64,000 nucleotides of DNA from a bacterium (GCA_030583725.1 CP129472.1:270958-334957); one strand, 5' to 3'; positions 1-63,734 are shown, numbered from the stretch's first letter. Numbers and translations are program-made. The notes: generated by a model from the letters alone, not told the origin.

Positions 1-1216
1 TACCCCATGTGTCTAAATTGGTAACAATGACCATATCATCAGTAGTTACCTCTTTTAACTTATATGACATCTCTACATAAATAGGTGCCTTATCGGTGTT
101 GACCATTTTATTTTTAAACCTTGAATCTAAAAATATAATTCCTAATGTTTGACCAACAGAGAAAAATAGAATTAAAAATATTGAAATTACAACTACAAAT
201 TTTTGTTTTGTAATTGGAGACCTTTTTATTATTTCTACTAATGTAGCCACTGCAACAATATATACAAGTGGAACAACAGGATGAATATATCTGTAAAAAG
301 GAATTGTTAAGGCAGTGACTAAAAAGGTTAACAGTGCTACAAACAAAACTGAAATCTTAAAAGAATTTTGCAATTTAACTTTACCCCAACTAAACATTCC
401 AATAACAAACAATCCCCACATATAAGGACTGGCAATTTCTGGAAGCGCTTTGTAAAAGTTGTAAAGGTTGTAAAAGACTTTTTTCACAACGTCCAGAGAT
501 GACAACGACGAACCTACAACACCCCTTAAACCGTCAGATACGGCCATATTAGGAGAATAAGTCAGTATTGACTGCAAACCTCTCATGAGAATAGGTGTAA
601 CTGGATACTTAAACGAAAGTGGATAAATTACAAACTTGTCCACCAAATACCCCAGTATTCCTAAGCCAAAAAAAGAAATTAGTGCTTTCTTGACACCAAA
701 TCTGACAATAAGCCAGTATAAAACTATACCTGCCATAGAGATGATAGCTTGAGGTCGACTGAAGTACATCAATATCAAAGTAACTATTGCCAACAAGTCA
801 GTAAACTTACTTTTAAAGCTAACAAGATACAAACCCAAAACTATTTCGAATGCAAAAAGTGTTTCCGATGCCCCACTTGTAGCATAGTCAATAAAATTAT
901 AATTTGAAGCAATAGATAAAGACGCTAACATACCAGTTGTTTTATCGAATAACCTACTGGCGAGCAAAAAAACAAAGATAATCAAAAAAATAAAAAAGAA
1001 GAAAGAAAATGAAATAACAGCAAAGTCATTAACACCAAAAAGTTTCATAAATAGGCTCATCAAGTGAGGTACTAGTATAGAAATACCACTCGTACTAAAA
1101 AAGCCACTGCCCCAAAAAGAGAAGTCTGTAGCATATACACCCGTATCAACTAGATTCCTGGCAATCAAAGAAAACTTTGCCCCATCTGAAAATGTTAGAT
1201 AGATACTATTAATCAT
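1..1216 (-). CDS. Polytopic membrane protein, GT-C fold ArnT/PMT_2-like glycosyltransferase. Partial: the C-terminal part lies beyond the window edge
   Basis: Open minus-strand frame from ATG at 1214-1216 (MINSIYLTFSDGAKFSLIARNL...) down to position 1 with no stop. It is absent from the ORF track because no stop falls inside the window. The N-terminal loop FSDGAKFSLIARNLVDTGVY parallels the ArnT first periplasmic loop DEARYAEISREMLASGDW, and many hydrophobic helices follow. Confidence 0.55.
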   Translation of the reverse strand, partial: MINSIYLTFSDGAKFSLIARNLVDTGVYATDFSFWGSGFFSTSGISILVPHLMSLFMKLFGVNDFAVISFSFFFFIFLIIFVFLLASRLFDKTTGMLASLSIASNYNFIDYATSGASETLFAFEIVLGLYLVSFKSKFTDLLAIVTLILMYFSRPQAIISMAGIVLYWLIVRFGVKKALISFFGLGILGYLVDKFVIYPLSFKYPVTPILMRGLQSILTYSPNMAVSDGLRGVVGSSLSSLDVVKKVFYNLYNFYKALPEIASPYMWGLFVIGMFSWGKVKLQNSFKISVLFVALLTFLVTALTIPFYRYIHPVVPLVYIVAVATLVEIIKRSPITKQKFVVVISIFLILFFSVGQTLGIIFLDSRFKNKMVNTDKAPIYVEMSYKLKEVTTDDMVIVTNLDTWG

Positions 1217-2750
1217 TTTTGCAGTTTATTTGTTGTACAAAAATCATATCAGTGCCTTCGATATCCCTATATTTATACTTATACCTACTTTTATATTCTA
1301 ACACGACAGACAAGTTGTTTTTGTTTAAAATCATTCCATCCCAACAGAAAAGGTCAATTGTGGCAGAAACGTTATAGTTATCATAAATTAATAACTTTTC
1401 GCCATATGATAGCAGCCAGTTATTAGTAATAATCTTATCCATTTGAGTTACATAAAAATACTCCGACCAATCTCTGCCCCTAATTATTGCATACTGCCTA
1501 GTGGGTGCAACCGAATCCCAAATTAACGTTGATTTTTTTGGCAAAGAATCTGAAAATTGCTGCAAATTATATGATTTAGATATCTCTCTCCTTTCGTTGA
1601 TAAAATCATCTCGTACAAAATATATTGCAAATACGGACACCAAACACAATAGAAATATTTTGTATCTCAGCTTTAACTCATTAAACAAGAATGTGATCAT
1701 AATGCAAACGAGTAAAATATTTCCAGCTTGATAGTGAATCTCCCTATATTTTGAAAATATTAATATTCCAATAAATGAACTAATAAAAATAGATTTTACA
1801 AGTAAATATTTCTTATCTAGCTTCTGAATCAGGATAATAATAGTGACTAAAAGCAACAATAGGAAAATATTATAATGCCCAAACCAGAATATTATATTCT
1901 GGTTAATATTTGATAATTCAAAAAAACCAAAATCACCTCCGCCACTTCTCCCAGTTCTAGTCAATAAACTCCATAACCAGTTAATAATGGATGGATATTT
2001 TCTGATAACAACTGACGTGCCCAATATAAATCCTCCTAGGATACCGCCTATTGTAAGCTGAATAACTTTTTTGTTTTTAGTAAAAAATGACAATACGAGC
2101 GTTGTAAAACCAACAAACAAAAATGTAAGCTTTGAAGAAATTGATAACCCAGCAATAATAGACGCTAAAACCAGATAGTCTTTTTCTTTTTTGCGTAAAT
2201 ATGTAACGATAAAATTCAACCAAATACCTGTAAAAAATAGGCCAAACACTTCGGGGGTTATTATTCTCTGCATTCTTAAAAACATAGGTGATAAGAACAA
2301 TATGAGGAATAAAAACAAATTTACTAACCTAGATTTAAAATATCTATATATTGCAAGGTGAATTAGAAATACACCAATTACAAATACTACCCATACAGAA
2401 AAAATTGATAACCAATAAACCAGTGTAAAGTTTTCGAGACTCCACAATGAGAAATCAGTAACTCCAGTGAGCTTGACAATTATTTTTACCACGTATATCG
2501 GAATCGATAAGAATACTGTCAATGGTGTCCCTGGATGATCTACAATAAATATTTTCTTTATTTGGATAAACTCCAAAGCGTTCGCGACATAGGCAGGACC
2601 TGGATCAATGATATAAAATGGAGTGGTCGGTTTAATGATGAGCGGTAAAATACCAAAAAACGAAGACGTTAATGTTAAAATAAGCAACCAATAAAAATTA
2701 TTTGCAGTTAAAAAACTCTTCAACTTTTTTAGAAACATAATCAACTTCAT
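1209..2750 (-). CDS. Polytopic membrane protein, GT-C-like glycosyltransferase with a C-terminal soluble domain
   Basis: 513-aa ORF with 10 or more hydrophobic helices followed by a hydrophilic tail of about 140 aa, the same architecture as the other ArnT-like proteins in the window. The IIDPGPAYVANAL segment resembles the LIGP...GN...GP.YYYL loop of the 55635/57764/60288 subfamily. The predicted start overlaps the upstream aminotransferase gene by about 50 nt, so the true start is probably further downstream. Confidence 0.5.
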   Translation of the reverse strand: MKLIMFLKKLKSFLTANNFYWLLILTLTSSFFGILPLIIKPTTPFYIIDPGPAYVANALEFIQIKKIFIVDHPGTPLTVFLSIPIYVVKIIVKLTGVTDFSLWSLENFTLVYWLSIFSVWVVFVIGVFLIHLAIYRYFKSRLVNLFLFLILFLSPMFLRMQRIITPEVFGLFFTGIWLNFIVTYLRKKEKDYLVLASIIAGLSISSKLTFLFVGFTTLVLSFFTKNKKVIQLTIGGILGGFILGTSVVIRKYPSIINWLWSLLTRTGRSGGGDFGFFELSNINQNIIFWFGHYNIFLLLLLVTIIILIQKLDKKYLLVKSIFISSFIGILIFSKYREIHYQAGNILLVCIMITFLFNELKLRYKIFLLCLVSVFAIYFVRDDFINERREISKSYNLQQFSDSLPKKSTLIWDSVAPTRQYAIIRGRDWSEYFYVTQMDKIITNNWLLSYGEKLLIYDNYNVSATIDLFCWDGMILNKNNLSVVLEYKSRYKYKYRDIEGTDMIFVQQINCKND

Positions 2751-3801
2751 TTGACTTCATTGTAGGATAGCACGGTAAAGATAGTATTTCATTAACAAAC
2801 TGACGAACAACAGGTAAATTAATCTTTTCATATTTACCACCAAACAAAGGCTGATCTGGAATAGAAATAGGGTAGTGTACTAGAGATGGAATTCCTTTTT
2901 CTTTTAAATAATTTTGCAATTCATTCCTCTTTTTGGTTTTTATGACAAATAAATGAAAATTCGAGTCATTAATGTCTGTTGGTGCAATAATCTGTAAGCC
3001 ACCCACATCTTTAAGACTATCTATATATTTTCTTGCAATTGATAATCTTTTTCTGTTATCTGACTTCAAAAACCTTAGCTTTACCCTTAAGATAGAGGCT
3101 TGAAGTTCGTCTAGCCTACTATTTAGTCCATATCTAATGTGTTTGTATTTTGATTCTTGTCCATAGTCTCTCAGTTGATACAATATTTTAGCCAATTTAT
3201 CACTGTTAGTGGTTATTGCTCCACCATCTCCAATTGCTCCCAAGTTTTTTGTAGGGTAAAAACTATAACAAGCTACATCTCCAAAACTCCCTACTGGTAC
3301 ACCGTTGTAACTTGTGCCATGTGCCTGGCAAGCATCTTCAATTAAAAATAATTTATTTTTCTTGCAAATACTTTTAACTTTTTCAATCTCAAGAGGTTGC
3401 CCATACAAATGAACTGGAATTATTGCTTTAGTTCTTTTTGTAACTGCTTTCTCAACTAAATTCTCGTCAATCTGTCCATTTTCTTTTACATCTACAAATA
3501 CTGGAGTTGCACCGACAGCAAGAATGGAAAGGGTTGTTGCAACAGCTGATAAGGGAGTCGTTATTACTTCGTCATCCTTACCAACATCTAAAGCCATTAA
3601 TGAAATCTGGAGCGCCTCCAGGCCATTTGCCACACCTATACAGTGACTGCTACTTGTAAAATCAGAAAACTCTTTTTCAAATTGTTTTACCTCATCACCT
3701 AAAACATACACACCCTTCTTCATTACAGAATCAAATGCATTCTTATATTCCTTTTTCCTGATTGAATAATCTTTTTTGAAATCTAAATAATTAATTTGCA
3801 T
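2698..3801 (-). CDS. DegT/DnrJ/EryC1/StrS-family PLP-dependent sugar aminotransferase (FdtB/QdtB-like dTDP-3-keto-6-deoxyhexose transaminase)
   Basis: 367 aa. Carries the SFYPTKNLGAIGDGGAI motif with the PLP-binding lysine and DACQAHG, with a full-length fit to the DegT/ArnB/WecE fold. It lies directly downstream of an FdtA-like isomerase. Confidence 0.9.
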   Translation of the reverse strand: MQINYLDFKKDYSIRKKEYKNAFDSVMKKGVYVLGDEVKQFEKEFSDFTSSSHCIGVANGLEALQISLMALDVGKDDEVITTPLSAVATTLSILAVGATPVFVDVKENGQIDENLVEKAVTKRTKAIIPVHLYGQPLEIEKVKSICKKNKLFLIEDACQAHGTSYNGVPVGSFGDVACYSFYPTKNLGAIGDGGAITTNSDKLAKILYQLRDYGQESKYKHIRYGLNSRLDELQASILRVKLRFLKSDNRKRLSIARKYIDSLKDVGGLQIIAPTDINDSNFHLFVIKTKKRNELQNYLKEKGIPSLVHYPISIPDQPLFGGKYEKINLPVVRQFVNEILSLPCYPTMKSNEVDYVSKKVEEFFNCK

Positions 3802-4195
3802 ATGACTTTAGAAAATCCTCATAACTTCTAACATAATCACTGGCATCATGTCTTTTGGAAGCCAATATTAATAGTATTGTATTCTTTTTGAAATCTGACA
3901 TCTCATGCCAGACGCGAGGGTCTAGTATAACTCCAATATTTGGTTTATCAAGATGAACTGTTTCTTTGTTATGACCATCATCAAGTATGATATCTATTTC
4001 GCCCTGAATACAAAATATTGCTTGAATAGTTTCCTTGTGGGTATGGGCACCCCTGACGGCCCCCTCTGAAACTCCGTAAATAAAATATACCCTTTCAATT
4101 TTAAAAGGTATTTCATCCAAGTATTGTAGTTGGCAAAGAGACCCATCTGTAGTTAGAAGTGGTGCTTCTATTATTTTAGTTAGTTTATTTGCCAT
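3791..4195 (-). CDS. dTDP-4-keto-6-deoxy-D-glucose 3,4-ketoisomerase, FdtA/QdtA (WxcM-like cupin)
   Basis: 134 aa. IERVYFIYGVSEGAVRGAHTHKETIQAIFCIQGEIDIILDDG ... VILDPRVWHEMSDF ... LILASKRHDASDYVRSYEDF aligns almost residue for residue with Aneurinibacillus FdtA (IKRVYYIFD..RGFHAHKKLEQVLVCLNGSCRVILDDG..VWHEMHDFS..VLASDYYDETDYIRQYDNF). Confidence 0.88.
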   Translation of the reverse strand: MANKLTKIIEAPLLTTDGSLCQLQYLDEIPFKIERVYFIYGVSEGAVRGAHTHKETIQAIFCIQGEIDIILDDGHNKETVHLDKPNIGVILDPRVWHEMSDFKKNTILLILASKRHDASDYVRSYEDFLKSYAN

Positions 4196-5166
4196 CCCTT
4201 AATCCTCCAGTAAAATGGTCCTATGTATTTTGCCAACTTATGTTTAATTAGTTGTATTTTATTCCCACCATTTTTTGGGGGGCTTATTTGAAAACTTTTA
4301 TCATATTTCTTAACAAACTTATATTGTTTTATCAATTCCTTTTCGTATGGTTCGTAAATATGTTTGACCACATCTTTTGAAAGAGTATATCCCAAAACTC
4401 GACTAAAGTTGGTTGGGCCTAACACCTGAAACTGATGAAAATGATAACAAACCAACTTTGTTTTGTTAATGTAAATATCACTCTTTACTTTTCTAACCTT
4501 ATATTGCGAGTGGTTCCATGGAGCAACATTTACACCAATATTTTTAGAAATGACTAGTTTCTTTCCATACAACCTTGGCCATTCATTCAAATAAAGCTGG
4601 TCACCAAGTTTTCCGTCTTCGAACCTCCAATAACACCAATCTAGACATTGATTTCTCCATCTTTTAAGGCATTTGATACCTGTTGAATCATTTTTAAACA
4701 CGTTTACTGCAACATTAAATTGTCCATCTTCAACGATCAGCCTTTCCATACCCTTTAGGTATCGATGCTCAACTGCAAGCATTGAACCTTTATATGCCTC
4801 ATCTATTATAATTTGGGGGTTTGAATAAAAATACTCGTCTGCATCTAGATAACAAACATACATTGTTTTTGGAGACTTTTTAAATATATACAATGGCCAT
4901 GAAGGAGTTGTTGTCCATATGTACTCCACTTTCGTTCTTGTATCTTTAATGGCTAGTAGCTCTTTATCTTCAAATTCTCTTAAGGGCACTACTGTCACAC
5001 CTTTTAGTTTCATTTTCCTTAGTACATCTTCCGTATATTTATCAAAAGCTAATACCCAAAGTTTTGCATCTGGGTTGTATTTTATTAATGAAGCGTGAAG
5101 TGCAAGACCTTTAGTTAAAAAGCCTTTATCAAAGTATGTGCAATAAATTATTTTTTCCTGTTTCAT
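4180..5166 (-). CDS. Putative GT-A-fold nucleotide-diphospho-sugar glycosyltransferase (DXD motif)
   Basis: 328-aa soluble protein. The N-terminus (IIYCTYFDKGFL..LHASL) looks like a Rossmann-type nucleotide-sugar-binding start, and a YLDADEYFY DXD motif follows. Family not recognised precisely. Confidence 0.45.
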   Translation of the reverse strand: MKQEKIIYCTYFDKGFLTKGLALHASLIKYNPDAKLWVLAFDKYTEDVLRKMKLKGVTVVPLREFEDKELLAIKDTRTKVEYIWTTTPSWPLYIFKKSPKTMYVCYLDADEYFYSNPQIIIDEAYKGSMLAVEHRYLKGMERLIVEDGQFNVAVNVFKNDSTGIKCLKRWRNQCLDWCYWRFEDGKLGDQLYLNEWPRLYGKKLVISKNIGVNVAPWNHSQYKVRKVKSDIYINKTKLVCYHFHQFQVLGPTNFSRVLGYTLSKDVVKHIYEPYEKELIKQYKFVKKYDKSFQISPPKNGGNKIQLIKHKLAKYIGPFYWRIKGWQIN

Positions 5167-5200: not shown

Positions 5201-6115
5201 CTAACTTTTTAACACTTTAACTAACTTGGGAATCAAAACAAAGGGGTAAACATTTAACAAATAATGGAAAGCTTTACCTACTACAACTAAATAATTCAAA
5301 GCTAAATAATTTGTAGGGCAATGTTTTTTTACAAATTTAAAATGATCGACTATGTTAACTTTAGATTTTCTTGAAAACAGCAAGTTATAATATTCTCTAA
5401 AAGACATATTTTGTTTGATGCTATCCCCCATCCCTGTCCTTTCAATTTTGTTCATAACTAAAGATTTATAACTTACGACTGGGATATACCCGCTTTTTTT
5501 GGCGACATAAAAATAATCATAATCTGAAAGATAGTGTGGAAAGTTTTTTTTATCAAAGTTACCAATTTTTCGAATTAAAGATATGGGAAACAAAGTACCT
5601 TTTGAAGAAAGCGTGTCAAAGATTTTTGAACACAACATATTATGTTTAATATCATATTTATTTCTCTTATAATCTGAGGAGAAACTTAGATAATTCCATT
5701 TGATATTTACACCTGCATCCCAAACTTTTTTAGTGTTATTATCTAATACGCATGATCCAACTATAAATTTTAGGTCATTTTTTGCTACCTTAACTAAACT
5801 TGATACATATTTCCTGTTAAATGTGCAATCATTATTTATAGTCAAAATATAGTCATTCTCCGAAGACCGATTTACAATATCTCTAATACCTCTATAAAGT
5901 GATCCGGTCCACCATAAATTTCCATCTCCTTTGATTAACCTGACCTTTGGATAGTTCTTCTTTATAAATTCGTATGTTCCATCATTAGATCCATCGTCAA
6001 CAATTGTTACATCAATATTATGATAATCTTGCTTATCAAGTGATTTTAAAAACTTTTTAGTATATTCAATCTGATTATGAACAGCTGTCAACATAAACAC
6101 TCTCGGATTATTCAT
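5201..6115 (-). CDS. Glycosyltransferase family 2
   Basis: 304 aa. N-terminal GT-A core with VTIVDDGSNDGT ... TINNDC (DXD-like). Confidence 0.85.
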   Translation of the reverse strand: MNNPRVFMLTAVHNQIEYTKKFLKSLDKQDYHNIDVTIVDDGSNDGTYEFIKKNYPKVRLIKGDGNLWWTGSLYRGIRDIVNRSSENDYILTINNDCTFNRKYVSSLVKVAKNDLKFIVGSCVLDNNTKKVWDAGVNIKWNYLSFSSDYKRNKYDIKHNMLCSKIFDTLSSKGTLFPISLIRKIGNFDKKNFPHYLSDYDYFYVAKKSGYIPVVSYKSLVMNKIERTGMGDSIKQNMSFREYYNLLFSRKSKVNIVDHFKFVKKHCPTNYLALNYLVVVGKAFHYLLNVYPFVLIPKLVKVLKS

Positions 6116-7080
6116 TTTGGTTCTAATTCTATCAAAAAGCTTTCGCCATGGCCCAAAGCGTCAACTACTCTATTAACAGGTAAAATAATGAGTGGTGCGA
6201 ACTTATTAGCAAAGTATATAACTAGACCAGCTACTTTAGTAACAAAATTTGTATTACCTGAACCACGTCTAGATTTACTATCCCAAACATCTGACTTTTT
6301 TCCCATCTTAGTGGGATAGAATAAACAACGTATTTGTATCAAGGTCCATAAATTTGGAGTTATGGTTTTAAGATTTAATATTTTTAAATCTGCTTTTTTG
6401 GCCAATTTAATTATTGATTCTTTAGAAAAGTGGTTTATATGGTATGGAATATGCCAATGAATCCAACGTCTACCAAACAACTTTCGATACAAGGCATCAG
6501 AGTTTGGAAAAGTAAGTATTACTTTTCCATCAGTTTTTAATTTCTTTTTAATATCTAAAAGAAACTTTAAGGGATTCGGCTCATGCTCAATCACTTGGCT
6601 TGCTGTTACAAAATCAAATTTTAACTTTGGGAATGGATTATCAGAGATAAACCCATTGTAAACATTTAAACCTAATTTTTTTGCAAAAATCTGGGCAGTT
6701 GAGTCCGGTTCAACCCCATATGCCTCAGATCCTAATGCCTTAATTTCAAGTAATGACACACCGCTAGCAGACCCAATATCTAAAACCTTAGAATTTCGAT
6801 TAACATATAAATGAGAAACATTGTTTGTTCCTAGAAGCCATTTTTTTAAGTTATTTTTGTAATCAACTTGCCTTTTAATTTGGCTTGAATTTGTTTTGTT
6901 TAATGGATAATATTTTTTGTAGAATGCACCAATTTTTTCTTTTTTAAGTGCTGGGGCAGTCCTACCAAAACCACATTTTTTACATTTGTATATATCATAG
7001 TACCCCTTAGCACCATATCTATCATCAAACATTTTCCGAAACCATAGTTTTACTGTAGACGAACATAAATTACATTTCAT
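6112..7080 (-). CDS. Class I SAM-dependent methyltransferase with N-terminal C4 zinc ribbon
   Basis: 322 aa. CNLCSS...CKKCGF zinc ribbon, then VLDIGSASGVS (motif I) and an acidic motif II. Paralogous architecture to 50075..50941. Confidence 0.75.
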   Translation of the reverse strand: MKCNLCSSTVKLWFRKMFDDRYGAKGYYDIYKCKKCGFGRTAPALKKEKIGAFYKKYYPLNKTNSSQIKRQVDYKNNLKKWLLGTNNVSHLYVNRNSKVLDIGSASGVSLLEIKALGSEAYGVEPDSTAQIFAKKLGLNVYNGFISDNPFPKLKFDFVTASQVIEHEPNPLKFLLDIKKKLKTDGKVILTFPNSDALYRKLFGRRWIHWHIPYHINHFSKESIIKLAKKADLKILNLKTITPNLWTLIQIRCLFYPTKMGKKSDVWDSKSRRGSGNTNFVTKVAGLVIYFANKFAPLIILPVNRVVDALGHGESFLIELEPK

Positions 7081-7081
7081 A

Positions 7082-9008: not shown

Positions 9009-9604
9009 TTGATTGCTGTTACATAGATTGACGAAAATCTAATATTTATATCTTCACTAGTTTTAACTTTTCTTACCGTTACTTTCTTAAATCCCACATA
9101 TTTTAACTTTTGGACGATTGATACCTTATCAAAGAACACTTTATGTTCACCGTTTCTATACAATAACCACATCATTATATCAAACGGATTATCAAAGACT
9201 TTTTTATACTTTTTTGGTATATCGTTAATTTTTGACTTTAAAAAACTTATATCATTTTTAACATACGCGTTAATATATGGGTCGATATGGGGAACAGTAA
9301 AATCTAGTATTCCTCCTTTTTTAAGAACACGTCTACACTCATTAAAAATATAAATCAGTTCATCAATCTTAAGATGTTCGAAAAAATGATCAGATTTTAT
9401 TTCATCTACAGAATCGTCTCCGAAAGGTATCCCCCACAATAGATCCCAACTTATATCCGCACCTTTTGAAAAATCAATTCCAACAAAACCCTTACGTTTA
9501 TAATCTCCCGATCCCAAATCTAGTTTTAATATATCCCTAGCACTATATTTATATGACTTATACTTACCAGTAATATACATTAAATATTGTTTAATTTTTT
9601 TCAT
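9005..9604 (-). CDS. Class I SAM-dependent methyltransferase
   Basis: 199 aa. LKLDLGSGDYKRKGFVGIDF (motif I) ... KKGGILDF (motif III-like). ATGA overlap with the downstream gene. Confidence 0.6.
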   Translation of the reverse strand: MKKIKQYLMYITGKYKSYKYSARDILKLDLGSGDYKRKGFVGIDFSKGADISWDLLWGIPFGDDSVDEIKSDHFFEHLKIDELIYIFNECRRVLKKGGILDFTVPHIDPYINAYVKNDISFLKSKINDIPKKYKKVFDNPFDIMMWLLYRNGEHKVFFDKVSIVQKLKYVGFKKVTVRKVKTSEDINIRFSSIYVTAIK

Positions 9605-55634: not shown

Positions 55635-57011
55635 TCATATCCCCGACCATAATAGACCTATTCCATCGTATGAATGGGTACCAACTATACCTTCAAAGCC
55701 CTGAGGGATAGCTACAGAAAATATTCTCGTTTCACCTATTTTGGGTGGGACATCTGCTTTTATTTGATAGTAGTCGAATATGTATTCAAAACCAAACCTA
55801 TCACCTCTCTTAGAATTTATAGATATTCCATAACCTTCTGTACCTCCTATTTCAACTATCTTTTGAGCAATATTTTCTTTAGCCTTTAAGTTCCAAGAAA
55901 CGTATCTTGAATCAATTTGCTTAAAATTAAAATAAACAGAAATAATAATTATTAAAAAAACAATCATTTTGTAACTGATCAACCTCTTCAAAAATAGAGC
56001 AAGTAATAATATAAGGGAGGGAACAGACATTAATAGATAATACTCAGAAAATTTCCCCTGTTGTAGATAAAACAGAATAGCTGGCAATAAAGCTGTTGTT
56101 AGTAACAACAATGACAAATTTTTTAATTTTTTGTCTCTTAATAAACTGAAAGCATTGACCAAGACCAATGCGAATAAACCTTTTGTGAATATTGTATCTA
56201 AAAGATTAGTATTCTTTGGATAAATAAGAGATGTAGCACTAGAATTTAAAACATTAATTACCTTATTAAGGCTTATAAAATAATCAACACTATCACCTCT
56301 AAACACTTCAAAAAGCTTTTTTAAATTTATAAAATTGTGACTTAAATCAAAAACTAAGTTGGGTAAAAAGCCAACAAATAATATTGCCACAGTAGCAATA
56401 GATGTCATAACTTTTGGTTTTACGGGTCTTACAAGGAGAAAGTAAACAAGCAAAGAAACAAAACTTAGGATTACTCCAAAATGGGACTGAAACGCTAGAA
56501 CCAAACCAACAGCCAAAATCAAATATCCTACTTGTTTTTTAATAGAAATGTATCCACCAGCAAGAATCAACATCTGTGCTGTATAAAACAATGAAGGTGC
56601 CCAAGGTTGCTGATCCCAAAATATTAGTTTACTAGAAATTGCAGCTAGAAATAGAACTAAGTAGGCTACTTTTAAATCTATAAAATATTTAGTAAATAAA
56701 AATAATGTAATCAAAAATAGAAGACCCAAAACAGCTGACAAGTAGGCACCTGCAACTGGTGCACCACTAAATAAAAAACTAAAAAATGCCCAAAGGTAAA
56801 TAAAACCTGGACCTATTGAAAAACTGCCGATTGAAGTAACAGGGCCCAATAGAGGTAAATCACCTTTTAATAACTCGGTTGCCCTAGTAGCCAACCACTC
56901 TTGGTCTGCGTCAAAGTGAGTTCTCTGGTGAAGATTGTTAAACCTTAAAAATAAGGCCAATAGTAAAACTAAAACTACAAATATTTTTTTGAAATTTAAA
57001 TACCTTTTCAT
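55635..57011 (-). CDS. GT-C glycosyltransferase, ArnT-like, downstream partner of a DPM1-like GT2
   Basis: 458 aa. THFDADQEWLATRATELL ... LLGPVTSIGSFSIGPGFIYLW. Same subfamily as 57764 and 60288. Confidence 0.65.
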   Translation of the reverse strand: MKRYLNFKKIFVVLVLLLALFLRFNNLHQRTHFDADQEWLATRATELLKGDLPLLGPVTSIGSFSIGPGFIYLWAFFSFLFSGAPVAGAYLSAVLGLLFLITLFLFTKYFIDLKVAYLVLFLAAISSKLIFWDQQPWAPSLFYTAQMLILAGGYISIKKQVGYLILAVGLVLAFQSHFGVILSFVSLLVYFLLVRPVKPKVMTSIATVAILFVGFLPNLVFDLSHNFINLKKLFEVFRGDSVDYFISLNKVINVLNSSATSLIYPKNTNLLDTIFTKGLFALVLVNAFSLLRDKKLKNLSLLLLTTALLPAILFYLQQGKFSEYYLLMSVPSLILLLALFLKRLISYKMIVFLIIIISVYFNFKQIDSRYVSWNLKAKENIAQKIVEIGGTEGYGISINSKRGDRFGFEYIFDYYQIKADVPPKIGETRIFSVAIPQGFEGIVGTHSYDGIGLLWSGI

Positions 57012-57017: not shown

Positions 57018-57767
57018 TTATACTTTATATCTACCGTAAATTGCATTAATTCTAACCTTAACAAGATCCCTAAACCCTTCCCAAGAATCTTTAATTGGAT
57101 TTACTTTTGTCCCCTCTTTGTGATGCCAGACAACTGGAACTTCTGCAACTTTTAGTTTTAATTTTCTTGCAACATATAGAATTTCTAAATCAAACCCAGC
57201 TGAAACAGATGCCCCCGACTGGGCTTGTTTTTGATTGAAAACTTTAAGTCTTTTAAAAATCTTGTTAGATGCTGACATTGTAAAGGCCTTAAAACCACAT
57301 TGAGTATCTTTATAAGGAAGCTGCAATATTATATTTCTAAGAATTGAAAACCCATAGGCCATGGTTTTCCTAATTAGAGGTGCTCCTTCCCTACCTGCTC
57401 TTGAACCAATAACAATGTCGTAACCCTGTTTAAACTTTGGTAATACTTTTTCTAACTGATCTATGGGTGTGGCCTGATCCATATCATCAAATATTATTAT
57501 TTCCCCCTTTGCCTGAAGCATTCCTGCAATCACAGTTCCACCCTTCCCCCTGTGAGGCTCTCTTAAAACTCTCACATTTTTACGATTAACAGCAAATTTT
57601 TCAGCCAATTCACCCGTTTTATCTGTGGATCCATCATCAACGACTAATATCTCCCAAGTATATTTCTGGCCACCTAAATAGTCACATATACCCGAAAGAG
57701 CACCCGTTCTTATATTATTCTCTTCGTTATAAGACGGTATTACTACACTTAAAAATGGTCTTCTCAT
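57018..57767 (-). CDS. GT2 polyprenyl-phosphate hexosyltransferase (DPM1/ArnC-like)
   Basis: 249 aa. LSVVIPSYNEENNI ... LVVDDGSTDKT ... IFDDMDQATP. Confidence 0.85.
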   Translation of the reverse strand: MRRPFLSVVIPSYNEENNIRTGALSGICDYLGGQKYTWEILVVDDGSTDKTGELAEKFAVNRKNVRVLREPHRGKGGTVIAGMLQAKGEIIIFDDMDQATPIDQLEKVLPKFKQGYDIVIGSRAGREGAPLIRKTMAYGFSILRNIILQLPYKDTQCGFKAFTMSASNKIFKRLKVFNQKQAQSGASVSAGFDLEILYVARKLKLKVAEVPVVWHHKEGTKVNPIKDSWEGFRDLVKVRINAIYGRYKV

Positions 57768-59281
57768 TTTTCTATTCTATATCTTTTTTGTACTACAATT
57801 CCACCGAATCTTTCATCATCAACCACCATACCAATACCCTCTTGTCTGTCTAGCCATGCCTCAAGCCTCTCAGGGTGTGGTGGGTCAACTTCATAAACAG
57901 TATAAAGTAAACTTGTTTGTTCTGGAAATTGATCTAAGTTTTGCCATTTAAACAAGTAGTCATATGCGTGTGGTATTACTGGTGGTACATAGACATCAAC
58001 GTTAAAATCTGCATCGGAGTCATTCTTAATCCACTCAACCATATCCAACTGGTTCTTGAAAGCTATTATTTCAGGATCATTTAATGGTTTCTTATAATAT
58101 TCAAAACTGTTGTAATTTTGAATTGAAAAAATAATCAAAAAAGATATTCCTACTAACCTACCCCAATTTGACTGCCAAAGGGAATCAAGAACCACAGCGA
58201 ACATCAGAATAAAAACTAAATAGTAAGCAGTAAAATAATAATCATAAAAACCTCCTAAATTACTAACAAAAAATAACGTTCCTACAAATGGGGCTAAAAA
58301 TGTAATAAACAAAATTTGAAACTTTTTGTTTTTCCAAAGTACCTTGAAATTTTTAAATAGTAAATATACAAATAAAACAAGAAAGGGTAAAAAAAACAGA
58401 TCACCATCAACCCAAAACTTTGATGCAAAAAGGTCATAGTATTTTGAAAACCTGGCAGTTAATGTCTGTATAAAATCAATCGTAAAGGTCTTTTCATTAA
58501 ATACAAAGTTATAAAAAGCTTTTATCATTACGCCTTTATGTCTTACTTCAAATAATATTTGTGGTAAAAAGGTAAAAACAAAAACAAACACTGAGAGTGT
58601 TATAATTTTTAAGCTTGGAATTAACTTTTTGTTTAGAAATAAAATCAAAAGCAATGCGGGGATCAAATAAAGCTCAGTAGCAGCTCCAAAGTTTAAACCC
58701 ATACCGATGACAAATGAGGCCAGAGGCAAAGACCACCATCTTTTTTCAAGGAACTTTATCATTGAAAAAACAAATACCACACCCGTCAGCATTGTGGGAG
58801 TAGGATTTGAAAGCCACCTAGATGCCCCAATTATATAACTAGAAAAACTTGCAATTAATAATGCAAACAAACCCACTCTTTTATTAGATATATTTTTTGC
58901 AACTAAGTATAAAATAAGTAAAGCCAAAACTGATATGAATATCAAAAAATAATTTGCATACAATGGATTACCGTTAGAAAAATAGTAAGCGGGGGTAATT
59001 AAATAATAATACCAAGGACCTCTAAAGATACCGGTATTCCCCATCATTGGGCCTATTAAAAATAATTTACCATTATGAATTAAGTCCCAAATAACCAAAG
59101 CATCGCGACCTTGGTCATACCAAAAACCTAAAAGTTCAGGAAGTCTATATATTCGTACCAAAAAGGCTGTAATCAAAATTACGAAAATTAATATGTTCCA
59201 AGGAGTAAACAACTTCTTGCCACATAGCAAGAAGTTATGCTTAATTTTTGTTAAGAATTTCTTCTCAAGATTTATTGGCAT
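57764..59281 (-). CDS. GT-C glycosyltransferase, ArnT-like
   Basis: 505 aa. LLGFWYDQGRDALVIWDLIHNGKLFLIGPMMGNTGIFRGPWYYYL is collinear with 60288 (FLGDEGRDSIVVRNLLVHKDLFLIGPGTSVGNMYLGPLYYYL). Confidence 0.65.
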   Translation of the reverse strand: MPINLEKKFLTKIKHNFLLCGKKLFTPWNILIFVILITAFLVRIYRLPELLGFWYDQGRDALVIWDLIHNGKLFLIGPMMGNTGIFRGPWYYYLITPAYYFSNGNPLYANYFLIFISVLALLILYLVAKNISNKRVGLFALLIASFSSYIIGASRWLSNPTPTMLTGVVFVFSMIKFLEKRWWSLPLASFVIGMGLNFGAATELYLIPALLLILFLNKKLIPSLKIITLSVFVFVFTFLPQILFEVRHKGVMIKAFYNFVFNEKTFTIDFIQTLTARFSKYYDLFASKFWVDGDLFFLPFLVLFVYLLFKNFKVLWKNKKFQILFITFLAPFVGTLFFVSNLGGFYDYYFTAYYLVFILMFAVVLDSLWQSNWGRLVGISFLIIFSIQNYNSFEYYKKPLNDPEIIAFKNQLDMVEWIKNDSDADFNVDVYVPPVIPHAYDYLFKWQNLDQFPEQTSLLYTVYEVDPPHPERLEAWLDRQEGIGMVVDDERFGGIVVQKRYRIEK

Positions 59282-60266
59282 ATTTACGACATACAGTCAA
59301 AACTTTTTCCAAGGCCTCGTTAAATGGAGCTTCTACTTTGGCGCCTGACGCATATATATGACCACCGCCACCTAACTCTGTAGCAATTGCCGAGGTATCA
59401 AAACCGGTTCTCGACCTAAAACTTATAGCTAAAACATCTTTTTCTTGTTCTAAGGCAACAAATCCAAATTCAGTCCCCTCAACAACCTGACAAAACATAC
59501 TAGCGACAGACTCTTTAGCCATGGTCAGTTTATTATATTTCTGATAAACTTGGTGAGGTAATGCCGTCCAAACAAATTTATGCTCTTTATCGATTTGAAC
59601 ACTAGATAAGGCTTCTCCGTAAAACTTGATTAACTCAAAAGAGTCGCTTCTATATAAATTATGAATAGCTTTGTCTTTATCACCCCCCAGTTTCATTAAA
59701 GTGCTTACAGTATTAAAGGTCCTCTCATTCGCACCAGGGTATCTGAATGCCCCAGTATCTCCAACTATTCCTGCCATCAGTGAATCTGCAATTTCCTTGT
59801 TTAAAACAATATTCCAATCCTCAAAAACTAAATAAAGCAACTCTCCCACCGAGGTAACTTTTTGATCTATTAGGTTAATCTCGCCATACTTATTGTTAGT
59901 ATGATGATGATCGATAACTATAGTCCTAATATCTTTAGGTATAAAATTTTTTAAACCAGTCACCATATCCCAATTTGAAGAATCCAAGGTAATGAACAAC
60001 TCAAAACTTGAGAAGTCAAACTCATTGAAGTTGACACCTTTCTTGATTGTGTCAAAACCTGAAAGATAGCTAACATTTTGATACAGCTCGTCGCTCGGGC
60101 AGATGACCTCAACTTCTTTACCCATAGCCAAAAGCACACCTTTCATTGCCAAGGCACTACCAATTGAGTCGGGGTCTGGTGAACGATGACAGTTTAGAAG
60201 TATTCTTTTGACCCTTTTAATTTCCTCTAATATTAACTGTGATTCATTATAATTTGTTGTTTTCAT
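59265..60266 (-). CDS. nrnA: DHH/DHHA1 phosphoesterase, NrnA-like (nanoRNase / pAp phosphatase)
   Basis: 333 aa. CHRSPDPDSIGSALA (DHH motif I/II), VIDHHHTN (DHH motif III), and a C-terminal GGGH block (DHHA1). Confidence 0.82.
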   Translation of the reverse strand: MKTTNYNESQLILEEIKRVKRILLNCHRSPDPDSIGSALAMKGVLLAMGKEVEVICPSDELYQNVSYLSGFDTIKKGVNFNEFDFSSFELFITLDSSNWDMVTGLKNFIPKDIRTIVIDHHHTNNKYGEINLIDQKVTSVGELLYLVFEDWNIVLNKEIADSLMAGIVGDTGAFRYPGANERTFNTVSTLMKLGGDKDKAIHNLYRSDSFELIKFYGEALSSVQIDKEHKFVWTALPHQVYQKYNKLTMAKESVASMFCQVVEGTEFGFVALEQEKDVLAISFRSRTGFDTSAIATELGGGGHIYASGAKVEAPFNEALEKVLTVCRKYANKS

Positions 60267-60287
60267 AAAATTTATGATTTCTCTAAT

Positions 60288-61874
60288 TTATTGTTTTTTA
60301 CTGTGTACCAGTTTGTATATTATAACACCGTCCACTTCCCAAACACTTTCAACTTTGCTCCAACCAAAGTTGGCAACTTCTGCCTTAGGTGAATGAGTTG
60401 GGTCACATTTTTCTTTTGGTTTTTCACAGACAACAAAAAGTTGATCTTTTATTGATTCTTCTATCTGGGCGTCAATTTTGACAACTTTATCGCTTTCTTT
60501 TTCTAAAAAGTAACGGTATCCATCTTCGTAATTACTATCTGCAATCACAGCAAGGTTAAATTCAGCTGTCTTTGACTCATCTATTATTTTTGTAGCAACA
60601 TTTTGTGCCCTTGCCATTTGTCTGTTTGGCTCTTTAAGAATTGGTGTTTCAGATATGTTCCAAATAACCAAAAATCCTAACAATAAATATATTAGACCAA
60701 CACCAATTTTACTTAAGTTCTCAAGAATCCCATCAATAAAGCCTGCGAAGAACAAAAAAATCGCAGGAAATAGAAAACCAAAATAGTGATCATAGATAGG
60801 TTGTTTATATATTCCAAAACCTATAAACCCAAAAAATAACCAGACAGTTAAAAACAAGAATCCTTCTGCTTCGTTCTTGTGTAATTTTTTACGACTTAAC
60901 ACAAATAAAATTGATGGTATGGAGACAATTGTCAAAATAAGATTACCCAAATTTTTATTTCCAACTCCAAGTAAAGATGTTGAAATGTTTTCAGCAATTT
61001 CTGGAATTCTAGGTAAAGCACTCCATGGTTTTGCAGAGACAGTAGTTTCTCTTTCTGTTACGAATTTTACTAAGGAGTTTGTATTTAACCAATTGTGACG
61101 AATGTCAAAAGCCAAAAGTGGTGACATTAAAAACAAAAATGTTATTAAGCCAAAAATACTCATTCTCATAAAACTTGCTACTTCCCCAGTCCAGTTCCCT
61201 GCCAAGTTAAACCTTAAAACTTTCCATACCCAAAATAATAAAATTACAGGTGCCAAAAGCAAACCTAAATAGTGAGACTGCAAACAAAATGCAAATGAAA
61301 TACCAAGAACTACTAGCCAACTATACAATCCTTTTTTCCAAAACTTCCAGACTGAATAGACTGTTAGTAGGGCAAAGAAGGGCATTATGTTCGGATTCCA
61401 CGATGAATGAGAGAAAATTATAACAGTCGGGCTAACTGCAAAAAGAAGTGATGCAATTAAACCAGCTTTTTTACTGAACCACTCACAGCCCACAAAATAT
61501 ACAAACCATATCGTAAACACACCCAACAAAGCCACAAATACAGCAGGACCCACAGGGGAGAAATTGGCTAAAGCCAAGGGAATTGCAATCAAATAATAAT
61601 ATAGAGGACCCAAATACATATTCCCAACCGAGGTGCCAGGACCTATCAAAAATAAATCCTTATGAACAAGTAAATTTCTGACAACTATCGAATCCCTACC
61701 CTCATCCCCTAAAAAGGTCATATATTGGTCAATTTTATAGAGTCTCAAGAAAGCTCCCACCAATAAAATTAAAATAATCAGCCAATTAGTTTTTATAAAA
61801 TTAATAAATTTATAATTCATAAGTTTTAAGTTCATATGTTTGATGTCTATAAAGTTTATTTGAGTTTGCGCCAC
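60288..61874 (-). CDS. GT-C glycosyltransferase, ArnT-like, downstream partner of a DPM1-like GT2
   Basis: 528-aa ORF. The true start is probably an internal Met, MNLKLMNYKF or MNYKFINFI. Carries the LGDEGRD loop motif and a C-terminal soluble domain. Confidence 0.65.
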   Translation of the reverse strand: MAQTQINFIDIKHMNLKLMNYKFINFIKTNWLIILILLVGAFLRLYKIDQYMTFLGDEGRDSIVVRNLLVHKDLFLIGPGTSVGNMYLGPLYYYLIAIPLALANFSPVGPAVFVALLGVFTIWFVYFVGCEWFSKKAGLIASLLFAVSPTVIIFSHSSWNPNIMPFFALLTVYSVWKFWKKGLYSWLVVLGISFAFCLQSHYLGLLLAPVILLFWVWKVLRFNLAGNWTGEVASFMRMSIFGLITFLFLMSPLLAFDIRHNWLNTNSLVKFVTERETTVSAKPWSALPRIPEIAENISTSLLGVGNKNLGNLILTIVSIPSILFVLSRKKLHKNEAEGFLFLTVWLFFGFIGFGIYKQPIYDHYFGFLFPAIFLFFAGFIDGILENLSKIGVGLIYLLLGFLVIWNISETPILKEPNRQMARAQNVATKIIDESKTAEFNLAVIADSNYEDGYRYFLEKESDKVVKIDAQIEESIKDQLFVVCEKPKEKCDPTHSPKAEVANFGWSKVESVWEVDGVIIYKLVHSKKQ

Positions 61875-62554
61875 AATCTAAATAAATCCACAAAGCTTTT
61901 TACAATTACCTTCAAATCTCTACCAGTTCCTTTTCCTTGTGTTCTTGGATAATGTGTCACTGGGATCTCAACTATTTTAAAGCCTGCTTTTTTTGCTTTA
62001 ATCAAAAATTCTGAAGAAATAAATGCACCCCTCTCGCTTTCCAAACGTGGAATTTTTTTGATCACCTCACTTTTAATCAACTTAAAGCCGCAATCAATAT
62101 CTTTTACATATAATCCAAAAAGTAACATTACTGAAATCTCCCACATTTTGGAAGTAATTATTTTAAACTTACTTACCCTGCGTTTTTTATAATAACCAAT
62201 CACAAGGTCTGCGTTTGTTTCTTTCTGCTTTTTTATAAAATTATCAATTTCGGAAAGGTCAAATTGTCCATCTGAATCTGTAAATGCAATCCAGTCATAT
62301 TTTGCGTTATAAAACCCAGATTGTAAACTTGCTCCATAGCCTTTATTTTGTTTGTGGGTAATGACTTTTATTTTAGGATTTTTATTTCTTAATTGACTTG
62401 CAATCTGACCTGTTCTATCCGTAGAGCCATCATTAACCACAATTATCTCCCAACTTTTAAACCTTTTATTTAAGACATCAACAGCCTTATTCACAGTACC
62501 CTTGATATTTCCTTCTTCATTATATGTTGGAAAAAAGACAGAAAGAGAATCCAT
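61856..62554 (-). CDS. GT2 polyprenyl-phosphate hexosyltransferase (DPM1/ArnC-like)
   Basis: 232 aa. LSVFFPTYNEEGNI ... IVVNDGSTDRT ... FTDSDGQF. Confidence 0.85.
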   Translation of the reverse strand: MDSLSVFFPTYNEEGNIKGTVNKAVDVLNKRFKSWEIIVVNDGSTDRTGQIASQLRNKNPKIKVITHKQNKGYGASLQSGFYNAKYDWIAFTDSDGQFDLSEIDNFIKKQKETNADLVIGYYKKRRVSKFKIITSKMWEISVMLLFGLYVKDIDCGFKLIKSEVIKKIPRLESERGAFISSEFLIKAKKAGFKIVEIPVTHYPRTQGKGTGRDLKVIVKSFVDLFRLWRKLK

Positions 62555-62603
62555 ATATTGGTAAGTCTAACACATCCGAGCTTAGATGTGATATTATCAA
62601 ATT
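62555..62603. promoter_or_regulatory. Divergent intergenic region with an extended -10-like TGaTATTAT close to the plus-strand ATG
   Basis: 49-bp gap between the minus-strand GT2 start and the plus-strand ATG at 62604. TGATATTAT ends about 8 nt before the ATG, and no Shine-Dalgarno sequence is present. Confidence 0.2.
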
Positions 62604-63734
62604 ATGAGAAAGCTATCTAAATTCATACCTATTATCTTGTTTGCAATTGTTCCAACTCTTTTGATTTGGTTGCCTTTTTTTTTCAGATTGGAAAAATTTT
62701 GGAACATCCCACTACCAAACCAAGGTATGGCAACTATTGTTGCTAATTATGACGGACCGTTATACATTGTAGCTGCCAAAACACTATATGACCCCGAGTT
62801 GATTAGCGCCAATTATCAATTCCCCCTTACTAATGAATACTACTCAGCACACTTTCCCCTGTTTCCACTATTAATCAAAGCTTTTGGCTATATCTTAGGT
62901 CATCCATATTCAATGTTGGCTACAACAATATTAACAACTATCCTAGCTCTTTTCTTCTTTTATAAACATGCAAGAAAATATTTAGACAAAAACAATGCAC
63001 TCTGGCTGACGTTTGTGTTTTCAGTTTTTCCTGCAAGATGGTTAATAGTCAGATCGGTAGGTTCTCCTGAACCTTTTTTTATTGCAGCAATCCTTGCCTC
63101 AACATACTATTTTGATAAACAAAAATATTGGCTTGCAGGACTTTGGGGAATGCTAGCACAGATAACCAAGTCCCCTGCAATACTACTTTTTGGAGCATAT
63201 ATTCTCCAAATTGTTATTTCTCAGATACACAATCTAGATAAAATAAAAATTAAAAAATACATACCACTTCTCTTAATGCCTTTTGGAGTATTGTTAGTCT
63301 TTTCACTATATAAATATGCATATGGAGATTTCCTTACTTATTTTAAATCTGGAGATAATATGCACTTGTTTTTCCCACCTTTTCAAATTTTTAACTATTC
63401 AGACGTATGGGTAGGTACTTTTTGGCTTGAAGAGATAATATTTGTATATTTATTTGGAGTATTAGGAATTTATAAACTCTTTCAAGAAAAGCTATCAACA
63501 TATTTCTATTTCTCACTAATCTTTTTTATACCACTCTTATTTGTGGCACATAGGGATTTGTTAAGATATTCTTTACCTCTAGTACCATTCTTGTTGTTAG
63601 GTTATAAGGATTTTATAATAAAAACAGAATTTAAAATTGCAATGGCAGTTTTGATAATCCCAATTTATCTTTATTCACTAACCTTCATATCTCAAAACGC
63701 CATGCCAATATCTAACTGGGCTCCATTCCTTTAA
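62604..63734 (+). CDS. Polytopic membrane protein, GT-C-like (PIG-V/DUF2029-like), paralog type of 23519..24658
   Basis: 376 aa with about 10 helices. The first loop ATIVANYDGPLYIVAAKTLY is comparable to WANFDGEHFTSIALYGY in 23519..24658. Confidence 0.45.
   Translation: MRKLSKFIPIILFAIVPTLLIWLPFFFRLEKFWNIPLPNQGMATIVANYDGPLYIVAAKTLYDPELISANYQFPLTNEYYSAHFPLFPLLIKAFGYILGHPYSMLATTILTTILALFFFYKHARKYLDKNNALWLTFVFSVFPARWLIVRSVGSPEPFFIAAILASTYYFDKQKYWLAGLWGMLAQITKSPAILLFGAYILQIVISQIHNLDKIKIKKYIPLLLMPFGVLLVFSLYKYAYGDFLTYFKSGDNMHLFFPPFQIFNYSDVWVGTFWLEEIIFVYLFGVLGIYKLFQEKLSTYFYFSLIFFIPLLFVAHRDLLRYSLPLVPFLLLGYKDFIIKTEFKIAMAVLIIPIYLYSLTFISQNAMPISNWAPFL

Follow-up and report, generated by a model that had tools for sequence, protein, structure and literature searches.

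Mycobacteria and corynebacteria assemble arabinogalactan and lipoarabinomannan (LAM) outside the cell with many GT-C glycosyltransferases (EmbA/B/C, AftA-D, MptA-C and PimE), which use few polyprenyl-phosphate-linked donors made by cytoplasmic enzymes (decaprenyl-phosphate-arabinose and polyprenyl-phosphate-mannose). Mycobacteria have ~15 GT-C enzymes per genome. In the three-component systems (GtrB/GtrA/GtrC, ArnC/ArnEF/ArnT, CsbB/GtcA/YfhO and PgfS/PgfM1/PgfE/PgfM2), the ratio of DPM1-like GT2 synthase to GT-C enzyme is 1:1. The archaeal agl pathway (AglB, the AglJ/G/I/E GT2 enzymes, the methyltransferase AglP and the Wzx-like flippase AglR) and Campylobacter pgl (PglB) rely on an oligosaccharyltransferase (OST), and the GT39 PMT/Pmt and GT83 ArnT enzymes are each encoded by one gene. 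We analyzed a 64-kb stretch of DNA (GCA_030583725.1 CP129472.1:270958-334957; hereafter the window, within which all gene coordinates are counted) from Candidatus Woesebacteria, a member of the Patescibacteria or Candidate Phyla Radiation (CPR). It encodes 22 polytopic membrane proteins that are supported as GT-C glycosyltransferases; one family among them is OST-like and has a member in a core of genes conserved across the Microgenomates.

With few donor synthases, many GT-C enzymes and structural matches that include AftA, AftB, AftD, EmbA and PimE, the locus is closer to the assembly of arabinogalactan/LAM in mycobacteria than to any cluster for O-antigen or S-layer glycans. GT87-type members are also present. 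The two differ in arrangement and in the families used. The mycobacterial genes are scattered over a 4.4-Mb genome in small clusters only, whereas here at least 24 GT-C genes lie in ~82 kb of a ~0.84-Mb contig. PMT_2, YfhO, PIG-V-like and STT3-like proteins are found here, in contrast to GT53, GT85 and GT89 in mycobacteria; the phylum is another one and a mycolyl-arabinogalactan context is absent. The likeness to the three-component systems lies in the DPM1-like GT2 genes beside GT-C genes, once with an epimerase gene (g20-g21-g22, a triad that we take to resemble the S. mutans Pgf operon), and in the match of one GT-C family (family C) to PTPS_related/YfhO. In this locus, however, four synthases face ~20 GT-C enzymes, and no NCBIfam score comes near the equivalog cut-off. 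PMT and ArnT share with the largest family (A) and g35 the PMT_2/PMT matches of most members, a D-E pair in the first loop, ~10-12 transmembrane (TM) helices and a C-terminal extracytoplasmic domain, but here twelve divergent paralogues in tandem arrays take the place of one gene.

The array of GT-C glycosyltransferases

The source organism is of groundwater type and has a tiny genome, with a largest contig of 842 kb; complete Woesebacteria genomes in our comparison set measure 0.81-0.92 Mb. The window is 99% coding, has a GC content of ~32% and contains 57 genes, nearly all on the minus strand. The median intergenic distance is -4 nt, indicating an operon-like organisation. The 22 GT-C genes cover 32.8 kb, or 51% of the window bases. 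The window corresponds to positions 39,488-103,487 of a 122.7-kb Logan contig, in which glycosylation genes go on for 10 kb beyond both ends: two further GT-C genes, a second Wzx and additional GT2 and GT4 genes on the left, and a GT2-GtrA fusion, four GT2 genes, RmlC and an RmlD-like gene on the right. In total, the locus is therefore 82 kb or longer and contains at least 24 GT-C genes.

An open reading frame (ORF) listing combined with a hydropathy scan revealed 24 polytopic proteins in the window: the 22 GT-C candidates, the ABC-2 permease g13 and the Wzx flippase g46. The GT-C superfamily is polytopic, typically with 11-13 TM helices, and its hallmark is a catalytic acidic motif of the DxD, DD or DE type shortly past TM1, in the first extracytoplasmic loop (EL1) (PMC6801728). 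The 22 proteins show 6-12 hydrophobic segments each, a lower bound given the crude scan, and the AlphaFold2 models of g43 and g54 have 10-13 membrane helices. An acidic motif past TM1 was found in all 22, although its placement in g01 is ambiguous. The motifs WDE, GDE, DADQ, VDEA, GDEGRD and YDQGRD, all quoted by the original prediction that was made from the sequence alone, stand directly after TM1. The motif Asp is the sole invariant column in an alignment of 10 family A members, and the loop Asp is likewise kept without exception among the aligned homologues of g43 (D39), g16 (D135) and g54 (D50).

Thirteen of the 22 proteins reach a Pfam gathering threshold, for PMT_2 (g00, g01, g26-g30, g35, g47, g50 and g52), GT87 (g34) or PTPS_related (g37). 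Among the remaining nine, g45, g48, g33 and g36 are tied in by BLASTP to members that pass. Direct Pfam matches are absent for six of the 22, so that profile libraries under-annotate GT-C enzymes. All-against-all BLASTP of the 22 proteins gave six groups, in keeping with the at least five families of the original prediction. Group A contains 12 PMT_2/ArnT-like proteins, g45 and g48 among them. Several of its members match PMT itself (PF02366) besides PMT_2; the Pfam matches cover the N-terminal PMT/PMT_2 region, and PMT_4TMC and MIR domains were found in none. The GT87-like proteins g33 and g34 form group B, the YfhO/PTPS_related-like g35, g36 and g37 group C, the Pfam-less g31 and g43 group D, and the PIG-V-like g22 and g54 group E. 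The last protein, g16, is an orphan in the window with DUF2029/GT87/PMT_2-like features. It has no Pfam match of its own; of its 39 homologues, 15 match PMT_2 and 11 match GT87, and a PDB sequence-profile search with the family gave nothing useful. Tandem GT-C paralogues are 22-38% identical to each other by BLASTP, suggesting that they are old.

Homologue alignments and AlphaFold2 models were made for the two groups that had no usable profile matches, and the models show a GT-C fold in families D and E. In profile-profile comparison, hhalign aligned family D to family A with 92.8% probability and family E with 95.3%; for g16 the value was only 67%. In the alignment of g43, H38-D39 falls on the D-E of the WDE motif. 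NCBIfam searches with the Pfam-less membrane proteins returned a single model, a sub-threshold AZOBR_p60025 match for g54 and g22. Profile and fold searches placed none of the 22 proteins in a transporter family, and homologues keep the loop motif; the result that the original prediction named as refuting it therefore did not arise. Thus all 22 are supported as GT-C glycosyltransferases, and the count of the original prediction holds, with 13 members above threshold and the others linked indirectly. Gene starts are uncertain for g30 and g31: their maximal ORFs, on opposite strands, overlap by 85 nt at the 5' ends (34355-34439), and gene calls for g30 differ between assemblies (441 or 494 aa).

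Four short GT2 proteins (g14, g20, g49 and g53; 223-249 aa) form one group, and each is encoded next to a GT-C gene. The best full-length matches of their profile are Pyrococcus DPMS (5mlz, 1.3e-36, positions 4-229 of 238), GtrB (5ekp, 1e-32) and ArnC (7e-27). The closest NCBIfam resemblances are to PgfS (the best for g49), ArnC, AglJ, Dol-P-hexose transferase and PpgS, with scores that stay under the equivalog cut-offs. Because the 22 membrane proteins are supported as GT-C enzymes and these four proteins match polyprenyl-phosphate sugar synthases best, lipid-linked extracytoplasmic glycosylation, as originally proposed, is the best reading of the locus. The evidence that polyprenyl-phosphate-linked sugars are the donors for the GT-C enzymes is circumstantial, consisting of these synthases and Wzx in the same operons. 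A small DUF2304 membrane protein is encoded directly downstream of g20, and the pairing is also found in the relative L089. We speculate that this protein could anchor or partner the g20 synthase, as DPM2 and DPM3 do for eukaryotic DPM1.

A conserved core with an oligosaccharyltransferase-like family

In GTDB, members of the g43 family occur in the genomes of 226 species. The best 80 loci are all from Microgenomates (Woesebacteria, Blackburnbacteria and Amesbacteria), and the named homologues and GTDB loci listed for g43 are all Microgenomates or Patescibacteria, mislabelled titles aside. Microgenomates-type g43 loci, with 44-62% identity and the same synteny, also occur in many GTDB-representative records under the title 'uncultured Gammaproteobacteria bacterium' (MAG TPA_asm; L012, L020, L021, L024 and others); these titles are evidently placeholders or mislabels.

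We assigned each ORF of the relatives to its best-matching window protein in 54 full-length loci, each from a different Microgenomates species. Wzx, g43, g41 and g40 are present in all 54, g42 in 53 and g38 in 51, forming a universal core in which the gene for Wzx mostly lies right next to the g43 homologue. Frequent members are g37 (50), g47 (44), g49 (40), g50 (40) and g39 (36). Pfam-annotated contigs of other Woesebacteria have the same gene order. In contrast, the left half of the window (g02-g25) differs even among close relatives; L006 and L089, for instance, gain or lose methyltransferases, g10, g11, g17 and the Fic gene. The locus thus has a conserved core and a variable periphery. Counting with in-house hidden Markov models in 21.6-kb windows around the g43 orthologue, we found 3-10 GT-C genes in the 54 species and 7.4 per 21.6 kb in the window itself. 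The original prediction regarded this density as unusual. The concentrated array is real, but other loci share it: such a density is the norm across Microgenomates, a lineage trait that is already present, unannotated, in public genomes.

The original prediction also missed that g43 and its paralogue g31 are OST-like and that g43 belongs to the universal core with Wzx and the cytoplasmic glycosyltransferases. In two independent structure comparisons, the g43 model was closest to the OST catalytic subunits STT3, AglB and PglB. With Foldseek, the top 13 matches were all STT3, AglB or PglB (3e-9 to 5e-7), followed by DPY19, with ArnT, AftA, AftD and PMT far behind. The C-terminal domain of g43 matched that of AglB in the structure comparison, and both g43 and g31 are predicted to combine an STT3-type TM fold with a C-terminal globular domain. 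In OSTs, the catalytic Asp is located in EL1 (D56 in PglB, D47 in AglB), and a D-x-D/E metal-binding motif is found in the second extracytoplasmic loop (PMC7226087). H38-D39 is invariant in 41 g43-family sequences. E149 of g43 lies in a conserved G-E-S-M-F-W stretch and is conserved in at least 90%; the family alignment contains no DxD/E. Judging from the alignment, the conserved D39 in EL1, E149 and E268 of g43 may parallel the acidic residues described for OSTs (PMC7226087).

The family is large, with ~900 clusters at 50% identity (E<=1e-30), and has no Pfam or NCBIfam model of its own. None of 41 members matched STT3 (PF02516) or any other Pfam family, except for one weak PMT_2 match. About 28% (42/150) of the best representatives are 740-1640 aa long (P0281, P0287, P0300, P0316 and others). 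In most of these, a signal or TM segment is followed by a ~430-560-aa extracytoplasmic N-terminal domain, which has a weak DUF3863/3lm3 match only and gives no clue to the acceptor. P0316 is a single 1,639-aa ORF in which Wzx is fused N-terminally to a g43-like module. This fusion, a single case, supports functional coupling of the flippase and the OST-like protein. Core genes shared with the agl and pgl pathways are the Wzx-type flippase, the STT3-fold GT-C protein with an AglB-like C-terminal domain, the GT2 and GT4 enzymes, a methyltransferase and a DPM1-like GT2. The host differs, being a CPR bacterium.

A model for envelope glycosylation and its alternatives

We consider it likely, with good confidence, that the window covers the middle 64 kb of a locus for cell-envelope glycosylation that is 82 kb or longer and has three cooperating arms. 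In the first arm, the lineage-wide core, the GT2 and GT4 enzymes and a methyltransferase (g38-g42) would build an oligosaccharide on polyprenyl phosphate in the cytoplasm. The Wzx flippase g46 would then flip it to the outer face, where a conserved acceptor may receive it en bloc through g43, and possibly through g31 as well. In the second arm, g14, g20, g49 and g53 would charge polyprenyl phosphate with single sugars. Once these have been flipped, ~20 GT-C enzymes (PMT_2/ArnT-, GT87-, YfhO- and PIG-V-like) could attach one sugar apiece, in a defined linkage, at the outer face; the closest parallels are the building of arabinan and mannan by mycobacterial Emb/Aft/Mpt enzymes and the decoration of teichoic acid or O-antigen by YfhO or GtrC. 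The third, variable arm (g02-g13) would make a methylated polymer with a 3-amino-6-deoxyhexose for export by Wzm/Wzt. The model starts from what was observed: protein families and folds, conservation of the catalytic Asp, and the gene order with its conservation; in it we infer the donors, the order of the reactions and the acceptors. We lean toward a glycan chain, which most of the GT-C enzymes would extend or decorate, over a protein target for each of them.

Several observations weigh against this model. Nine of the 22 GT-C calls are based on sub-threshold or indirect evidence. The DPM1-like GT2 proteins have no TM anchor, with zero or one hydrophobic segment by hydropathy, unlike GtrB, ArnC and Pyrococcus DPMS, which have a C-terminal one; in this they resemble the anchor-less DPM1 or Ppm1. 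A stand-alone GtrA-type flippase is absent from the window, the GT2-GtrA fusion just outside being the only one seen. An initiating phosphoglycosyltransferase of the Bac_transf or MraY/WecA type, too, was not found in the 82 kb examined. A start on monophosphate by a DPM1-like enzyme, as for archaeal AglJ, is only an analogy. No acceptor gene was identified in the locus. For g43, PDB sequence searches with the whole family and with the C-terminal domain were empty, so the link to OSTs is purely structural. OSTs bind the sequon at its +2 Ser/Thr through the WWD(YG) motif (PMC7226087). W[WYF]D was found in 0/40 g43-type sequences, and the motif that defines N-OSTs is thus absent from them; g31 alone has WFD, at residue 519. 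In the g43 family, the conserved stretch P-L-Y-x-Y-[DE]-S-T (residues 454-461) is a candidate for what takes the WWD and DK positions. Together with the absence of sequon evidence, these points set the locus apart from agl and pgl. Since WWD is absent and there is no sequence-level link to solved OSTs, g43 is not filed as an OST, while its context, beside a Wzx flippase and cytoplasmic glycosyltransferases as in agl/pgl loci, is OST-like. We put forward tentatively, as a proposal that we hold less likely to be right than wrong, that the g43 family is an unrecognised bacterial branch of STT3/AglB which, with Wzx, moves a pre-assembled oligosaccharide en bloc onto surface proteins or the wall and recognises its acceptor independently of WWD. 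If so, a major CPR lineage would have an Agl/Pgl-like pathway as a housekeeping trait, and the ~20 other GT-C enzymes would remodel its glycan outside the cell.

It is possible, though we doubt it, that the GT-C enzymes act mainly on proteins. The PMT_2-like members would then O-glycosylate S-layer, pilin or other surface proteins, as do actinobacterial Pmt and S. mutans PgfS/PgfM1/PgfE/PgfM2, and g43 would be a true protein OST with a non-canonical sequon. The matches of several family A members to PMT itself, the synthase-epimerase-GT-C triad of g20, g21 and g22 that mirrors the Pgf operon, the resemblance of g49 to PgfS and the proximity of g43 to STT3/AglB/PglB all fit such a role. However, PMT_4TMC, MIR and WWD are missing and the locus contains no candidate gene for an acceptor protein. 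In known systems, one or two PMT-type enzymes are enough for proteome-wide O-glycosylation, and ~20 paralogues therefore fit linkage-specific glycan building better. Another explanation, which we regard as improbable, views the paralogues as alternative, strain-variable decoration modules that diversify the surface against phage or host, comparable to the Gtr serotype-conversion cassettes, and not as one pathway. The variable left half of the window, the small number of g16 homologues (40) and the likeness of the GT2 and GT-C pairs to Gtr/three-component modules agree with this explanation. By contrast, the 54 species share the gene order and content of the right half, the tandem paralogues diverged long ago, and g43 and g54 are 50-78% identical to the homologues listed from other Woesebacteria and Patescibacteria, unlike variable antigens. 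That most of the membrane proteins are transporters or other polytopic proteins with coincidental acidic motifs is close to refuted. The six proteins without a direct Pfam match and the crude TM counts leave such an idea very little room, given the conserved loop Asp and the fold and profile results above.

The components of the locus all come from known superfamilies. What is new is their concentration in a reduced genome, their conservation in a CPR lineage and an STT3-fold family without WWD. We found no publication on such GT-C/OST-like loci in CPR or Microgenomates in an incomplete search of the literature, in which absence is not proof. The CPR/Patescibacteria, with their drastically reduced genomes, are believed to live attached to host cells. 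Even so, ~10% of a 0.84-Mb contig and >2% of the genes in this lineage go to extracytoplasmic glycosyltransferases, which makes surface glycans prime candidates for mediating host contact and keeping the envelope intact. For experiments, the locus offers a defined gene set that can be synthesised: the core with Wzx and the STT3-like protein, the four synthases of lipid-linked sugars, and the six GT-C families, of which Pfam fails to recognise two. Lacking WWD, an STT3-fold enzyme could uncover a new acceptor specificity, which is relevant to the evolution of N-glycosylation and to glycoengineering.

Accessory genes and surroundings of the window

The accessory genes were counted exactly by the original prediction. 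Besides the four DPM1-like synthases there are six other GT2 (g04, g18, g25, g38, g41 and g42), two GT4 (g23 and g40), one CgeB-like transferase and eight methyltransferases (g05, g06, g08, g11, g15, g17, g39 and g44). Sugar tailoring is represented by a DegT aminotransferase, an FdtA isomerase, an epimerase and a short-chain dehydrogenase. The two exporters, Wzm/Wzt (g13/g12) and Wzx (g46), are each above the Pfam gathering threshold. For g03, g09 and g32, there was no match in Pfam or in the further libraries that each was run against (NCBIfam, PDB sequences or PHROGs). Scans of the window for tRNA and Rfam families found nothing.

Table 1. Genes of the 64-kb window, with the number of loci of relatives (out of 54) that contain each gene where it was given
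Gene	Coordinates	Strand	Assignment and evidence	Loci
g00	1..1216	-	GT-C family A; PMT_2 35.3 bits; 3' end beyond window start, 497 aa in full contig	
g01	1209..2750	-	GT-C family A; marginal PMT_2 26.6 bits (cutoff 26.1); ~10 TM	
g02	2698..3801	-	DegT-type sugar aminotransferase; PF01041 365 bits	
FdtA-like	3791..4195	-	3,4-ketoisomerase, 134 aa; PF05523 134 bits	
g03	4180..5166	-	328 aa, beside FdtA/DegT; no library match	
g04	5201..6115	-	GT2	
g05	6112..7080	-	S-adenosylmethionine (SAM) methyltransferase	
g06	7082..7903	-	SAM methyltransferase	
g07	7896..9008	-	CgeB-like Glyco_trans_1_2 transferase; PF13524 98 bits	
g08	9005..9604	-	Methyltransferase-like; Methyltransf_11 27.5 bits	
g09	9609..11639	-	676 aa, soluble; no library match; conserved in relatives L089, L005	
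g10	11641..12810	-	CapA/PGA_cap-like; PF09587 175 bits	
g11	12794..13627	-	FkbM methyltransferase	
g12	13635..14876	-	Wzt ABC ATPase with Wzt_C glycan-binding domain; ABC_tran PF00005 80.4 bits, PF14524 40.7 bits	
g13	14883..15707	-	Wzm ABC-2 permease; PF01061 63.3 bits	
g14	15773..16471	+	TM-less DPM1/GtrB/ArnC-like polyprenyl-phosphate sugar synthase (GT2)	
g15	16468..17052	+	Methyltransferase	
g16	17049..18917	+	GT-C orphan; motif PDELHYH; D135 invariant; homologues PMT_2 15/39, GT87 11/39	
g17	18919..19698	-	Methyltransferase	
g18	19700..20512	-	GT2	
g19	20475..21512	-	Fic-domain protein; PF02661; phrog_5978 1.7e-45	
DUF2304	21549..21875	-	Small membrane protein, 108 aa; PF10066	
g20	21895..22566	-	DPM1-like polyprenyl-phosphate sugar synthase (GT2)	
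g21	22556..23497	-	NAD-dependent sugar epimerase/dehydratase; PF01370 178 bits	
g22	23519..24658	-	GT-C family E (PIG-V/Gpi18-like); PIG-V 18.3 bits; BLASTP to g54 1e-6; L089 homologue matches PF04188	
g23	24645..25607	-	GT4	
g24	25638..26387	-	Short-chain dehydrogenase	
g25	26384..27250	-	GT2	
g26	27261..28838	-	GT-C family A (WDE); PMT_2 55.5 bits, PMT 46.6 bits	
g27	28820..30196	-	GT-C family A (WDE); PMT_2 30.8 bits	
g28	30165..31817	-	GT-C family A (WDE); PMT_2 43.9 bits	
g29	31792..32958	-	GT-C family A (GDE); PMT_2 36.6 bits	
g30	32955..34439	-	GT-C family A (GDE); PMT_2 34.5 bits; 441 or 494 aa, start uncertain	
g31	34355..36190	+	GT-C family D, STT3-like g43 paralogue; 29% identity, 4e-72 to g43; shares all invariant columns of g43 homologue alignment	
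g32	36162..36764	-	200 aa, single TM; no library match	
g33	36757..38016	-	GT-C family B (GT87-like); GT87 22.4 bits; 9e-41 to g34	
g34	37964..39208	-	GT-C family B; GT87 (PF09594) 31.1 bits (cutoff 25)	
g35	39205..40866	-	GT-C family C (YfhO/PTPS_related-like; DD motif); PMT_2 28.6 bits instead of PTPS_related; BLASTP to g36, g37	
g36	40863..42485	-	GT-C family C; PTPS_related 17.5 bits; 2e-120 to g37	
g37	42478..44148	-	GT-C family C; PTPS_related (PF10131) 40.5 bits (cutoff 26.4), YfhO (PF09586) 23.2 bits (cutoff 28.5)	50
g38	44166..45068	-	GT2 with C-terminal TM; core	51
g39	45071..45715	-	Methyltransferase	36
g40	45712..46803	-	GT4; core	54
g41	46776..47504	-	GT2-like; core	54
g42	47501..48403	-	GT2; core	53
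g43	48423..50090	-	GT-C family D; STT3/AglB/PglB-like, predicted AglB-like C-terminal domain; no WWD, no Pfam family; universal core	54
g44	50075..50941	-	Methyltransferase	
g45	50925..52658	-	GT-C family A (DADQ); no Pfam match; BLASTP to g26, g27, g28, g30 at 1e-10 to 1e-15	
g46	52618..54081	-	Wzx flippase; Polysacc_synt_3 179.5 bits; core	54
g47	54095..55618	-	GT-C family A (VDEA); PMT_2 47.7 bits	44
g48	55635..57011	-	GT-C family A (DADQ); no Pfam match; BLASTP to g52 3e-17	
g49	57018..57767	-	DPM1-like polyprenyl-phosphate sugar synthase (GT2)	40
g50	57764..59281	-	GT-C family A (YDQGRD); PMT_2 36.3 bits	40
g51	59265..60266	-	DHH/DHHA1 NrnA-like phosphoesterase inside array	
g52	60288..61874	-	GT-C family A (GDEGRD); PMT_2 46.3 bits	
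g53	61856..62554	-	DPM1-like polyprenyl-phosphate sugar synthase (GT2)	
g54	62604..63734	+	GT-C family E (Gpi18/PIG-V-like); D50 invariant; 60-78% identity to 120 listed homologues	

Two window proteins have exact counterparts in an NCBI metagenome-assembled genome (841,695-bp contig), namely QY322_01635 and QY322_01830. An assembly artefact was considered and rejected, as segments of the locus recur in independent assemblies (three Logan runs and the NCBI genome). Directly right of the window (L003 11195-12740), a DUF35 (zf-ChsH2/OB_ChsH2_C) protein is encoded beside the GT2 fused to a GtrA_DPMS_TM flippase-like domain; TrmD, the four GT2, the RmlD-like gene and RmlC come after these two. The low GC content and the DUF35 gene prompted us to consider an archaeal origin. 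It was rejected because a bacterial TrmD gene adjoins, directly outside the window, and all named homologues are from Candidatus Woesebacteria or Patescibacteria.

The Fic gene g19 is probably an inserted passenger or toxin-type gene, since it is absent at the same place in L089. A second Fic gene and an NYN nuclease gene lie just left of the window (L005 13114-14840). The position of g51 between the GT-C genes g50 and g52 recurs in other Woesebacteria (L008, L010 and L064).

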